A DNA stretch of 64,000 nt from Mobula hypostoma (GCF_963921235.1 NC_086107.1:106642001-106706000), one strand, 5' to 3'. Positions 14,332 to 61,802 are shown, numbered from the stretch's first letter. Translations and numbers: made by a program. The notes: generated by a model from the letters alone, not told the origin.

Positions 14332-14548
14332 CCCTCCCCCTCCTGTCTTCTCCTATCATTTTGGATCTCCCCCTCCCCCTCCAACTTTCAAATCCCTTAC
14401 TCACTCTTCCTTCAGTTAGTCCTGACGAAGGGTCTCGGCCTGAAACGTCGACTGCACCTCTTCCTACAGATGCTGCCTGGCCTGCTGCGTTCACCAGCAA
14501 CTTTGATGTATGTTGCTTGAATTTCCAGCATCTGCAGAATTCCTGTTG
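14332..14548 (+). mobile_element. Penelope-derived 3' terminal insertion with hammerhead motif
   Basis: Matches the 3' UTR of the Penelope fragment at 58075-58594. Flanked by perfect TTCAGGATGTATAT at 14318-14331 and 14549-14562. Confidence 0.85.
14418..14453 (+). ncRNA. Minimal type I hammerhead ribozyme motif (intact core)
   Basis: AGTC-CTGACGA-A-GGGT-CTCG-GCCT-GAAA-C-GTC-GACT: core CUGANGA/GAAA, stem II, GUC cleavage triplet, stem I AGUC/GACU, palindromic ACGU in place of stem III. Confidence 0.75.
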
Positions 14549-14600
14549 TTCAGGATGTATATTGTATACATTTCTCTGACATTAAATTTGACCTTTGAAC

Positions 14601-15205
14601 CTTTGGTAAGGAAGGCAAATGCAATGTTAGCATTCATTTCAAGAGGATTAGAATATAAAAGCAAGGATGTAATGCTGAGTCATTGGTCAGACTGCACTTG
14701 GAGTATTGTAAGCAGTGTTGGACCCTTTATCTAAGAAAGGATGTGCTGGCATTGGACAAGGTAATAATCCTGGGAACAAAAGGGTTAACGTTAGATGGTG
14801 CTGGAGTTTAGAAGATTGAGGGGGAGTCTCATAGAAACCTATTGAATATTGAAAGGCCGAGATAAAGTGGATATGGAGAGCATGTTTCCTTTGGTGAGGA
14901 AGTCAAGACCAGAGGGCACAGCCTCAGAATAGGAGGATGTTCCCTTAGAACAGAGGTGAAGAAGAATTTCTTCAGTCAGAGGGTGGTGAATCTGTGGAAT
15001 TCATGGCAACAGATGTCTATGGGGGGGGAGCACATTACTAGATATATTTAAAATGGAGGTTGGTAGGTTCTTGATTAGTAGGGGAATAAAAGATTAAGGG
15101 GAGAAGACAGGAGAATGTGGTTCAGAGGGATAATAAATCAGCCATGATGGAATGGTGGAGCAGACTCAATGGACTGAATGGCCTAATTCTGCTCATAAGT
15201 CTTAT
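14601..15205 (+). mobile_element. CR1 LINE 3' fragment
   Basis: VRKANAMLAFISRGLEYKSKDVML and NFFSQRVVNLWN-type coding remnants; CR1-like 3' UTR. Confidence 0.75.
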
Positions 15206-15914
15206 AGTAGTATACACTGACTTTCATAATAAATTTACTTTGAACTTTTTAAACTTTGAACATAGATACAGACAGGACGCGGTATAAATTACACACAAGA
15301 TTATACCCCACAGTGAAAGGTAAACTGTGTGAAAGCAAGATCTGGGTGCAAACCAGAACTAAGGCACTATCTAGGACAAGTGGCTGGTAGTACCAAAGGC
15401 GGTCTATTGCGTTCTGTAGCCGAGGGGTGCAGCTTAGTTTGTGAACCGGATGGTTGTAAGGAAGTCGCTGCTTCTGGATGTGGTGGTGGGGATTTCAGGC
15501 CGCTGTACCTCCTCCCTCATGGCAGCAGCAAGGAGAGGCATAACCCAGATTGTGGGGATCCTTGACAATGGACACACCTACGTGAGCCCATGAATGCGAT
15601 CAAAAATAAAACAGAACGTGGGGAGAACTTGGTGGGCAGAACAGCGAGTACTACCAATCCTCTTCCCTCTCAGTCTTGATCTTGACCCAAAATGTCGACC
15701 TACTCCTTTGGTCAAATGCATTGAGTCCTACCCACAGTTCATTTTATTCCAGCTTCCAGATTCTGTGTTCTTTTGTTTGTCTTCAAGAGGTTTTAAGAAA
15801 CTTGCTCACAGAACATATACATAATTGTCACGTCCAATCTTCATCTCCAATCCTCAGCTGCCTCTGTGCTGAGTGTGTTACTGGGTAAATTTCAGAATCA
15901 GCCATATTCTAGTG

Positions 15915-15995
15915 CAGGGGTTCCCAACCTTTTTTATGCCATGGACCCCCAACCATTGACTGAGGGGTCTGTGGACCACAAGTTTGGAACCTCTG
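15915..15995. mobile_element. About 80-bp hAT-like MITE
   Basis: Termini CAGGGGTTCCCAAC / GTTTGGAACCTCTG. Related copies at about 49847-49925 and 59857-59933. Confidence 0.6.
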
Positions 15996-17189
15996 GTGTG
16001 CATTTGGGTCAGACCAAGTAAGGACTTCCTGTCCTCAAGGACATCAGTGAACCAGAGTGGGTTTCATGATTACTGTTACCGATATATATCTCGACTCCTG
16101 TCTTGCCACTGGATCCAGACGGGAATTGGGAAGAGAGAGTGAGGCTGACGCTGCGCAACTCTCCCTCACTTAAATCCAAATCAAGCACTAGTCTTGCCAC
16201 CATCGTGGTGTCGAGGTCTTCGTCGATGACGATGGGCGAACCTTACTGGTATGTTGACTGCAGTGATAGATCGCAGAAGCCGACCATTCGGCCCATCGAA
16301 CCGAATGGTCCACCAGTTCAGTATCTACTGTAAGCTCTGCCTTCCATACAGTTATCCCCAATGCAACCTTGGGAATTGGATAATCAGGCTTTGGCTTGTG
16401 ACTTAACTGTGTCTCTCCCAAGGAGCCCCTCTCTGATGTTGACTGCATTGATTAACAGCAGGGTTGGGTGAGACTTCAAAGTTTAAAATAAATATATTAT
16501 CAAAGTACCTATACCGTATGTCACCATCTACCACCCTGAGATTCATTTTCTTGCAGGCGTACACAGTAAGTCCAAAAACCATCGTAGAATCAATGAAAGA
16601 CCGTCCCCAGCAAGAAAGACAAACAACCAACGCACAGGAAAAAAAGAAACTGCATAAATGCAAAAGAGAAAAATAAATAAATAAATAGACAGGCAAACAG
16701 AAAATAAATAAAGGAACAATAAATATCGAGTCCTTGAAAGTGACTCCATCGGTTGTGGGAACATTTCAGTGATGGGGCAAGTGATGTTGAATAAAATTAT
16801 CCCCTTTGATTCAAGAGCCTAATAGCTGAGCGGTAGTAACTGTTCCTGAATCTGGTGGTGTGGTTCCTGAGGCTCCTCTACCTTCTTCCTGGTGGCAGCA
16901 GTGAGAAGAGAGAATGACCTGTGTAGTAGGGGTCTCTGATGATGGACGCTGCTTCCCTGTGACAGCGCACCATGTAGATGTGCTCAATGGAGGGAAGGGT
17001 TTTACCCGTGAAGGGCTGGGCCGTATCCATTACTTTATGTAGGCTTTTACATTCAAGGGTATTGGTGTTTTCATACCAGGCTGTGATGCAACCAGTTAGT
17101 ATATTCTCCACCACACATCTATAGAAGCAACACACATCAAAGTTGCTGGTGAACGCAGCAGGCCAGGCAGCATCTCTAGGAAGAGGTAC

Positions 17190-17225
17190 AGTCGACATTT
17201 CAGGCTGAGACCCTTCGTCAGGACT
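17190..17225 (-). ncRNA. Minimal hammerhead motif (core intact, palindrome mutated)
   Basis: Reverse complement AGTC-CTGACGA-AGGGTCTCAGCCT-GAAA-T-GTC-GACT. Confidence 0.6.
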
Positions 17226-17301
17226 AACTGAAAGAAGAGCTAGTAAGAGGTTTGAAAGTGGGAGGGGGAGGCCAAATCTCTTACTAGCTCTTCTTTCAGT
17301 T

Positions 17302-17337
17302 AGTCCTGACGAAGGGTCTCGGCCTGAAACGTCGACT
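17302..17337 (+). ncRNA. Minimal type I hammerhead ribozyme motif (intact core)
   Basis: AGTC-CTGACGA-AGGGTCTCGGCCT-GAAA-C-GTC-GACT. Confidence 0.75.
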
Positions 17338-59933: not shown

Positions 59934-60127
59934 GCTTAGAGAGATTTGGGCCAAACACGGGCAAAAGGGGCGAGCTTAGTTGGGTACCCTGAACCTGACT
60001 GTTATTTTCAGACTGACTGGCTAGTTCCAGCGTTCTCTGTTTTTAATTCAGAAACAGTCTTTTACTGACACAGGGATCATAAAACAAAGGAGCAGAATTA
60101 GGCCATTCAGCCCATCGACTCTGCCTT

Positions 60128-60327
60128 CAACGTTCCCTCTGATTTTTTTGTTAACAGCTGCGCAGACCAACCATTACGCTGAGCAGGGAGTTTTTACAGG
60201 GCCCGAAAGCTGCGTGGCACTTTAATTGAACATTGTATAATAGATAATTCCAGCTCCGCGGCAACGAGGCTATGTGCGCGGGGGCATTTCAGCTACTGCG
60301 TGGCCGCGCAGCTTAGAGGGAACAGTG
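60128..60327. mobile_element. Probable hAT-like MITE
   Basis: Inverted termini CAACGTTCCCTCT / AGAGGGAACAGTG; TSD not clear. Confidence 0.5.
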
Positions 60328-60673
60328 TGCTGCCATTCGATCGTGGCCGATACACCTACAAAGAACCCGCTGAAGGATCTCAGTGGGTCGAGCAGTGGGG
60401 GGAAAGGAACTACAGATGGTTTAAGTCCCGATGCAGGGTTTTGTGAAGAAACATTCACAAATCCTCAACACCGCCCCCCCACCCCAACTCCCCTGACACT
60501 GCTTGACCGGTGTGGCTGCATTGATTTTGTTTTGGGACAGTTTTGTTTTGATCATTGCTTCCAGGAAGAGCCGGGGCAGGGTGGGGAATTCCTTTTGAAT
60601 CGTAGAAGGCGCTATATAAATGCAAGTTCTAGTTGTTGCCGCAGCTCAAGCCTGTGTCTTTCGGATTTTACAG

Positions 60674-60756
60674 GAAAGTCGAGCTCTTCGATCCAGGAAC
60701 GCCAAGTCAGCACCATCACCACAAAGAGTAAAAAGGAGAAGTGCCTGGTTTCGTGA
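60674..60756 (+). CDS. FAM83F: FAM83F terminal exon 5 with CaaX box
   Basis: Acceptor ttttacAG; (G)KSSSSIQERQVSTITTKSKKEKCLVS*; phase matches exon 4. Total CDS is 450+168+122+704+83 = 1527 nt, 508 aa. Confidence 0.85.
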
Positions 60757-61266
60757 GGAGTCGACGGCAGAGTCGTGCTGCAGGGAAACAGGCTGTTCGG
60801 CCCTTCGAGTGTGTGCTGGACATCATCTTACACTGATCTCATTTTCTTTTTCCCACATTCCCACCAACTCTCCCCCAATTCTAATACTCACCTGCACATT
60901 CGGGGCAACTAATCTGCCAATCGGCCCGTCTTTGGGGTGTGGGAAGAAATCGGAGCACTCAGGATGATCACAGGGAGAATGTGGGAACTCCACACAGATG
61001 GAGTGCTGGAGTTTGGGAATGAATCTGGATCGCTTGGGCTCTGCAAGGTGTGGAAGAGAAAAAAATCAGGGAGGGTTCACCACAATAGATTTGATTTTAT
61101 AGCCTGGTGTACCTGTTTGATTTCTTTTTCTGGGCCTGCGTCCCGTCTCGATCACTTGGACCTGAACGTCCGACTGTCCTGGGTCGTACAGCCGGCAACT
61201 TGGTGGACAACAGCACCCCATTGTGGCCAAGTGAAGAACTGCATATTCATATTCCTTTGTATCACG

Positions 61267-61272
61267 AATAAA
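61267..61272 (+). terminator. Candidate FAM83F polyadenylation signal
   Basis: AATAAA about 510 nt after the stop codon, followed by T-rich sequence. Confidence 0.5.
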
Positions 61273-61703
61273 GTGTATTTTTTTAAATTTAAAAATCATA
61301 CTTTGAGGTGCAAAGGAGGGGTGGTGGTGTTGTGGTTAAACAAGCCAGAACACCACCTTCTGCTTCCTCTAAAAAAAGGCAATAAGTGTTTTGGATAAGT
61401 TCACGTCACAGAGTGAAAAAGGGAGACCACTGTCATCGAGGGGTCTGGTGTCAGCAGCACTGAGTCAACATGTTGACAAGATCACCAGTGCTTGACTCCT
61501 ATGTATTTTCAAAAGTTCAAAGGACTTTTTACTATCTAAGTATGTGTACTTTATGCAATCTTGAGGTTCGTCTCCTTATAGGCAGTCACAAAACATAGAA
61601 CCCCAACAGAAACCATTAGAAGCAAAAGAGCACCCAATGTGCTGAGAGAGAGAGGGAAAAAACCAAATCGTGCAACCAGTAAAACCAAGCAAACAGCGTT
61701 CAG

Positions 61704-61802
61704 AACACACATCAAAGTTGCTGGTGAACGCAGCAGGCCAGGCAGCATCTCTAGGAAGAGGTACAGTCGACGTTTCACGCCGAGTCCCTTCGTCAGGACT
61801 AA
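61704..61802 (-). mobile_element. Penelope-derived fragment with a stem II-disrupted hammerhead (61765-61800)
   Basis: Reverse complement AGTC-CTGACGA-AGGGACTCGGCGT-GAAA-C-GTC-GACT plus the family 3' tail. Confidence 0.75.

Follow-up and report, generated by a model that had tools for sequence, protein, structure and literature searches.

Minimal hammerhead motifs carried by a Penelope-like element in the genome of the ray Mobula hypostoma, in copies that are probably mostly inert

A 64,000-nt stretch of the Mobula hypostoma genome (GCF_963921235.1 NC_086107.1:106642001-106706000; hereafter the window) contains dispersed copies of a 36-nt motif resembling a minimal hammerhead ribozyme (min-HHR), which raises the question of what carries the motif in this ray and whether the scattered copies still act as ribozymes. 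The comparisons described here make it very probable that the motif is a min-HHR in the pseudo-long terminal repeat (pLTR) of an endonuclease-bearing (EN+) Penelope-like element (PLE), probably of the Neptune type, that has been hugely amplified in this ray, and that the dispersed copies are mostly inert passengers. The layout found is a GIY-YIG coding end, a pyrimidine-rich linker of about 300 nt, the hammerhead, and a tail of about 60 or about 100 nt.

Both strands were searched with the 36-mer at 14418 as reference. Up to 9 mismatches gave 10 sites, at 14418, 17302, 29094, 36703, 52321, 58500 and 1320/1329 on the plus strand and at 17225-17190, 28752-28717 and 61800-61765 on the minus strand, whereas block shuffles of the window (n = 30) had a mean count of 0 at up to 10 mismatches and 0.03 at up to 11. 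An eleventh site, at 36143, reads AGTCCTGAAGAAGGG and is then interrupted by a fold-back inversion. All 11 sites claimed by an initial annotation of this DNA are thus present; the variant that it placed at 1327 does contain a motif, which begins at 1328-1329, carries C17U and is missing both the first part of the core and the 5' strand of stem I. Searching with a repeat profile gave 27 fragments at E≤1 in the window and 0 in the reversed window. Family fragments and open reading frame (ORF) pieces together cover 3,423 of the 64,000 bases, about 5% of the window.

The core, the ACGU palindrome and both stems are kept in four copies (14418, 17302, 29094 and 52321). These had been called intact, which holds for core and stems in all four, but G10.1-C11.1 is found only at 52321, the other three having G-U at this pair. 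The copy at 52321-52356 is the only one with all canonical features, and the cut predicted for it, after 52352, is at the correct position. Among the 10 full-length sites, position 11.1 is U in seven (a wobble and a CpG-type change) and C in three. Seven have the full core with GUC (14418, 17302, 17225, 29094, 52321, 58500 and 61800), all ten have the extra A between 9 and 10.1, and seven have the ACGU palindrome, which is lost at 58500, 17225 and 36703; the 61800 copy combines an intact core with a broken stem II. The differences between copies are mostly of the CpG type.

To judge whether the motif is a ribozyme, we compared the window stem I (AGUC/GACU) with at least 122 metagenome loci collected by a pattern that fixed the core and three stem II pairs, and left stem I and the upstream gene free; core conservation in this set is therefore by construction. 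Among the metagenome matches listed, stem I pairs 1-4 are formed in 72, 70, 59 and 48 of 77 distinct motifs and pairs 5-6 in 27 and 15, and 113 of 176 cells in 44 stem I types are Watson-Crick, compared with 67.7±5.5 after shuffling. When three window copies were added (47 rows), 73.4% of the cells were paired versus 45.6% in shuffled sets. Stem I covariation was 0.63 versus 0.19 for shuffled and at most 0.16 for slid controls; as the rows are related, no probability is attached to it. Position 11.1 is C in 119 of the 127 metagenome matches listed. The GIY-YIG-end peptide of the window matches 37 of the 122 listed loci, with 35 of 38 alignments 67-164 nt upstream of the motif and on its strand. 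Viral contigs gave 0 matches to the hammerhead pattern. One metagenome match (L051:1615-1643, minus strand) lies in GC-rich, bacterial-looking DNA without stem I pairing, and is probably due to chance or a different hammerhead type.

The window copies form two subfamilies, A and B. Identity between them is 29-35 of 36 bases in the motif, 34-39 of 62-64 in the 60 nt upstream, and 12-14 of 19-20 in the next 17-19 nt downstream. The motif is the best-kept segment between A and B, rather than having a core kept no better than its flanks. At 58500 and 58537, contigs of four sequencing runs change over to B-type flanks. The core, the extra base, the palindrome, the missing helix III and a stem I that covaries over 44 types found in metagenome loci sharing the endonuclease end agree with the proposed minimal type I hammerhead. 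Curated models did not recover it: no hammerhead family was among the 30 Rfam matches at E≤5 in the window. The microRNA-type hairpins that Rfam proposed all fell below gathering scores and were produced by inverted arms. Judged from these comparisons, a real ribozyme motif is maintained in the source elements, while the window copies are probably inert, since stem I covariation and motif conservation stand on one side and lone, CpG-changed copies on the other.

The six copies that keep upstream sequence have a tract of 70-87% pyrimidines, which ends in AG and overlaps stem I. At 14388-14421, 36673-36706 and 36113-36146 this tract ends in CAG or TAG over the 5' strand of stem I and resembles a 3' splice site; the same tract-end bases may also fit an initiator consensus. 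No joint with the GT..AG ends that splicing into stem I would give was found in the 15 of 146 contig joints listed. In subfamily A (14408-14435), pairing of upstream CCUUC..CAG with core CUGA..GAAGG is predicted to give an alternative hairpin in which the motif would be switched off.

The carrier is probably an EN+ PLE of the Neptune type. The Penelope link had been drawn from GIY-YIG ends at 58075 and about 29030-29092, and these peptides proved to be real (58072-58203, plus strand; 29092-29030, minus strand). The link itself is supported, and a reverse transcriptase (RT) fragment is present in the window. The motif follows the ORF stop on the same strand, about 300 nt after 58203 and about 280 nt after 29030, and the longest copy shows the order GIY-YIG end, pyrimidine-rich linker, motif, tail. 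The 43-residue peptide at 58072-58200 has 38 protein relatives at E≤0.001; ten that were looked up comprise six from stingrays (Hemitrygon, Hypanus; 65-81% identity), two from skate and two from whale shark, a spread that probably puts this DNA within or close to the myliobatiform rays. The relatives include proteins with RT motifs, a C-x4-C-x2-C linker and YIGET. The RT fragment (30643-30320, minus strand), which the initial annotation did not list, was found by tblastn with relatives (E 4.5e-13 and 5.3e-10) directly downstream of a pLTR remnant (30792-30717), with little of the ORF start left. RT and GIY-YIG are separate fragments in the window and joined in the relatives P0005 and L003. These two also have the CX2-5CxxC linker, the corresponding region being absent from the window. 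The linker marks both Neptune and Nematis PLEs (10.1101/2021.04.23.441226), so that the assignment to Neptune is probable rather than firm.

The metagenome contig L003 holds a near-complete PLE at 1005-3663, with an inverted pLTR with motif, a 595-aa RT-GIY-YIG frame and a 3' pLTR with motif. The GIY-YIG end is also fused into four predicted ray proteins (P0002, P0003, P0010 and P0028; VKORC1L1, ATP synthase c, neuromedin-U receptor and a GEMIN8-domain protein), which represents either exonisation or gene-model error.

The insertions match the published PLE signature, namely 5' truncation, an inverted arm and a one-sided tail of 30-40 bp (10.1101/2021.04.23.441226). Target-site duplications (TSDs) of 13-14 bp abut the ends at 4 of 13 tested loci, and matches of 12 nt or more arise in 2.9% of 1000 random pairs. 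One of the four is a solo 5'-truncated pLTR of subfamily A at 14332-14548 (plus strand; motif 14418-14453), with a long tail and a 14-bp TSD (14318/14549). Head-to-head inverted pairs were found at 7 loci. The pair at 1281-1455 joins a short-ended minus arm (1327-1281) to a long-tailed plus arm (1328-1455) within a 13-bp TSD (1274/1462). At 17125-17416, two 116-nt arms with 97% complementarity carry motifs at 17225-17190 (minus) and 17302-17337 (plus) and are flanked by a 14-bp TSD (17114/17417). In the pair at 52273-52411, which has a 14-bp TSD (52257/52412) and lies in an intron of a FAM83 gene, the plus arm, on the sense strand, starts at the motif. A subfamily B minus arm at 28655-29093, comprising GIY-YIG C-terminal codons (29092-29030), pyrimidine-rich linker, a damaged motif (28752-28717) and a short end, adjoins a long-tailed subfamily B plus arm at 29094-29228, which starts exactly at its motif (29094-29129; core kept). 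Old inverted pairs are found at 36423-36799, where a damaged motif (36703-36738, plus) runs into a (TG)n tract; at 39209-39369, consisting of pLTR tails with the motif mostly lost; and at 58706-59686, where the plus-arm tail is interrupted by a (TG)n-type array of about 850 bp and resumes at 59644.

The longest subfamily A copy (58072-58593, plus) runs from GIY-YIG C-terminal codons through the linker and a motif with G16.2A (58500-58535) to a short end, and another subfamily A copy (61704-61802, minus), also short-ended, starts 2 nt before its motif. A subfamily B copy at 36015-36296 (plus) has its motif split by the fold-back inversion (36143-36157, resuming at about 36214). The pLTR remnant and RT fragment occupy 30320-30792 (minus; tblastn and profile), and an old pLTR remnant with an internal deletion and a long tail lies at 35652-35763 (minus).

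Counted from the motif start, the 3' ends fall into two classes, +89 to +101 and about +127 to +135, which are about 35-40 nt apart; in this classing three arms served as their own reference, two of them fixed by TSDs. Six of the seven inverted pairs have one short-ended and one long-ended arm, and the seventh fits once the array of about 850 bp is treated as part of the tail. Relative to the motif, 11 young arms have their 5' ends anywhere between -428 and +83. Three lie within 2 nt of its first base (29094, 52321 and 61802), none at the cut site (+33), and two inside GIY-YIG codons. This spread points to truncated insertions rather than one uniform short element. The "short Penelope-derived elements" proposed by the initial annotation are therefore Penelope-derived, but the carriers are 5'-truncated, often inverted, pLTR-bearing PLE insertions. 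Same-strand motifs are 560-33,048 nt apart with unrelated DNA between them, the 560-nt pair being two damaged copies. No dispersed copy has a tandem partner in the window, and no direct array with two motifs was found. Retrozyme-type head-to-tail units with a hammerhead each are likewise absent from the window, although rare tandems may occur elsewhere in the genome.

The (TG)n-type array of about 850 bp (58805-59650) lies inside one copy's tail and another copy enters (TG)n at 36797-36840; microsatellites may be seeded by the GTGTG segment of the element. Other repeats, of the long interspersed nuclear element (LINE) type, appear to have received three TSD-flanked PLE insertions.

How could such insertions arise and retain the motif? 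The PLE tail has been attributed to a pair of internal RT start sites (PMC11167929). Going by what is known of PLE biochemistry, the element protein would nick the target DNA; reverse transcription would then start at two internal RNA sites about 35-40 nt apart in the tail and would usually stop early. Nearly every insertion would keep the motif because reverse transcription stops early and the motif is within 135 nt of the priming sites. In tandem source elements, two motifs may pair via their ACGU palindromes, or with help of the element's protein, and may be cut after GUC at a low rate. Such low-rate cutting could be the reason why the sources keep the motif.

Several observations weigh against this account. 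TSDs are absent at 9 of the 13 loci tested, including 58072-58593. Pfam gave no match for the two window GIY-YIG peptides, and the L003 scores are below the curated cut-offs (RVT_1, 23.4 vs 29.6 bits; GIY-YIG, 19.8 vs 22.6 bits). The 64-kb window contains no full-length element, and tandem source elements are for this reason inferred. Non-CpG differences number 0 of 59 in the core and 4 of 343 in the tail, the copies being too young to tell neutral decay from selection. Finally, U at 11.1 is found in 5 of 7 subfamily A copies compared with 0-2 of 7 at other CpG sites, which is too frequent for simple decay, so that this U may be a source variant.

Other explanations were considered for the nature and the spread of the motif. 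A chance resemblance between a common repeat and a hammerhead, although in line with the missing Rfam hammerhead match, has a negligible probability: all core positions are in register and the same endonuclease end lies upstream in unrelated loci, and the covarying stem I together with this linkage refutes it. It is also distinctly unlikely that the amplified unit is a non-autonomous RNA of about 135 nt, starting at stem I and resembling a short interspersed nuclear element (SINE) or a retrozyme, that is mobilised in trans by the PLE protein. PLE-derived non-autonomous retrozymes have been reported in vertebrates (10.64898/2026.07.22.740005), and the three of 11 young arms that begin within 2 nt of the motif start would suit such a unit; the remaining eight start elsewhere, two of them in GIY-YIG codons, and the window has no tandem motif arrays. 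Position 58500 was among the strongest loose-end sites in all four sequencing runs, with the lowest agreement shown (0.40-0.43), but these loose ends need not mark 5' ends, because the consensus there is the subfamily B upstream sequence. Contig depth over the GIY-YIG end is about half of that over the motif, which also weighs against such a unit. The YYAGTCC at the start of stem I may be initiator-like. We prefer the truncated insertions of an EN+ PLE.

Given such insertions, do the dispersed copies cleave? Single min-HHRs did not cleave and dimers were cleaved poorly (PMC4209133), and only one of nine Xenopus min-HHR dimers was cleaved (10.64898/2026.07.22.740005). A PLE hammerhead of the anole does cleave once its protein is added, but no RNA-seq reads end at its cut site (PMC11167929). 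These data bear on the very unlikely proposal that dispersed copies are active ribozymes which cleave host transcripts, whether singly, as dimers formed over long range or between molecules, or aided by protein, for instance at 52321 and 29094 in FAM83 pre-mRNA. Core and stems are kept in 4 of 11 copies, and copies are so numerous that partners could meet in trans. Four of the five motif copies in the FAM83 gene span are sense-oriented; the numbers are tiny, and this lack of avoidance can be held for the proposal as well as against it. The 17302 motif, however, is buried in a hairpin with a predicted -238 kcal/mol, the 29094 motif faces a 91-nt arm with 88% complementarity, and the probability of a hammerhead-compatible fold is at most 0.011 in the four intact copies, in a model that ignores tertiary contacts. 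In dimer folding, the double hammerhead (-14.7 kcal/mol) lost out to other duplexes (-32.1 kcal/mol); this result was discarded as evidence, since the model includes neither core nor tertiary terms. In the sequencing-run contigs over an 821-base stretch, no site rich in molecule ends was reported. Contigs of run X9 carry the repeat; that this run is RNA is a guess, and the result has no bearing on expression or ends. The dispersed copies are thus probably mostly inert leftovers, since they have no partner, are often folded into an inverted arm, and decay at CpG. For the source elements, it is unlikely that the motif is kept for a non-cleavage role, such as protein binding, a promoter or a splice signal, the hammerhead chemistry being vestigial. 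Hammerhead mutants had no effect on insertion of the anole element in vitro (PMC11167929), Naiad PLEs without the motif still amplify (10.1101/2021.04.23.441226), G-U replaces the normally G-C pair in 7 of 10 copies, and the AG-ending pyrimidine tract overlaps stem I, like the intron end in D. virilis Penelope (PMC4209133). Against such a role, distant families show covariation in stem I as far as the core and the cut site, and the catalytic bases are common to both subfamilies, as retained catalysis predicts.

How large is the load? Scaling 11 motifs per 64 kb, from this one window, to a batoid genome of 2.2-4.0 Gb (10.64898/2026.10.27.761883) gives 3.8-6.9 × 10^5 motifs. In run X1, 148,849 contigs aligned to the 821-base stretch at 80% likeness, and the summed depth was 8-10 million over the motif versus 9-16 on unique flank, which gives an order of magnitude and not a copy number. 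The rough genome load of 10^5-10^6 agrees with the very large load that had been anticipated. Published loads, counted more strictly than here, are about 4,000 min-HHRs in coelacanth and about 9,000 in X. tropicalis (PMC4209133), and up to about 120,000 retrozyme copies in axolotl (PMC7229834). The family had further been thought uncatalogued for this lineage. We found no paper on it in rays by title or abstract, although supplements, Repbase or Dfam may include it, and a 2026 preprint reports hammerhead tandem units in one chondrichthyan (10.64898/2026.07.22.740005). Tables of that preprint and the red-stingray repeat models (Table S2 of 10.1101/2025.06.08.657570) may already include the family. 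Minimal PLE hammerheads were described in 2014; what is new here is the lineage and the rough load.

The family also exposes an annotation gap: its fragments account for about 5% of the window and predicted ray proteins incorporate its coding end, yet the main text of two batoid genome preprints mentions neither Penelope elements nor ribozymes. With so many copies, a young family like this offers enough statistics to test whether the cut shapes insertions or host RNA. It is a speculative and rather doubtful idea that no known genome exceeds that of myliobatiform rays in hammerhead-motif load (several hundred thousand copies) and that insertion starts record the RNA 5' end. With priming sites a short way 3' of the motif in each of the two pLTRs, a short insertion primed in the 5' one would be copied to the very 5' end of the RNA and so preserve that end. 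If so, insertion starts that cluster at motif +1 would indicate an uncleaved transcript beginning at stem I, a cluster at +33 would indicate ribozyme-cut RNA, and a genome-wide count would answer from DNA alone whether PLE hammerheads cut retrotransposed RNA.

The window also contains host genes and other repeats. A Pro/Met-rich exon (214-750), which has a 5-residue repeat (EPRMP), and an SH3-like last exon (about 6229-6336) lie on the plus strand in what looks like GRAP2. Two FAM83 exons (25158-25646 and about 54948-55772, plus strand) match Pfam SACK1; by synteny, the gene is probably FAM83F. A 33-bp minisatellite at 25844-26803 is open in several frames, and other LINE-type fragments lie at 10489-13635 (minus strand, with RVT_1 at 12408-13181), 16801-17750, 31703-32335 and 48963-49581.

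How does the ray family compare with known systems? PLE pLTRs are known to carry hammerhead motifs (PMC6765202), and min-HHRs were described in metazoan PLE pLTRs by Cervera and De la Pena in 2014, including those of fish, coelacanth, Xenopus and reptiles (PMC4209133); cartilaginous fish are not named in the text and two supplement files of that study that were searched. The ray motifs share with the 2014 set the type I topology, the full core, the extra base between 9 and 10.1, a short helix I, the missing helix III and the palindromic 15.2-16.2, and in both sets most motifs are single and dispersed from truncated PLEs, with some opposite-strand pairs 100-700 bp apart (PMC4209133). The ray copies differ in being uniform (two subfamilies), in having G-U at 10.1/11.1 in many copies, and in their load, roughly 10^5-10^6 by a looser count against about 4,000 and 9,000 (PMC4209133).

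As in the Neptune and Nematis EN+ PLEs of Craig et al., the GIY-YIG is C-terminal, with the C-x2-5-CxxC linker seen in the closest relatives P0005 and L003 only, and the insertions share 5' truncation, an inverted arm, a one-sided 30-40 bp tail and microsatellite association (10.1101/2021.04.23.441226). The Poseidon element PAc of the green anole, studied by Frangieh et al. in 2024, likewise has two internal RT starts that give the tail, with the hammerhead just upstream; its ORF starts in stem II and priming occurs in an AC-rich stem loop (PMC11167929), whereas the ray family has GU-rich ends on the motif strand, and its motif is not the start of any long frame. Non-LTR retrozymes and satellite 2 of newt and axolotl also have PLE-related type I hammerheads, which need dimers, but they form head-to-tail tandem units, with canonical type I motifs in axolotl (PMC7229834; 10.64898/2026.07.22.740005), while copies in the ray stand alone or head-to-head, some of them with ORF codons.

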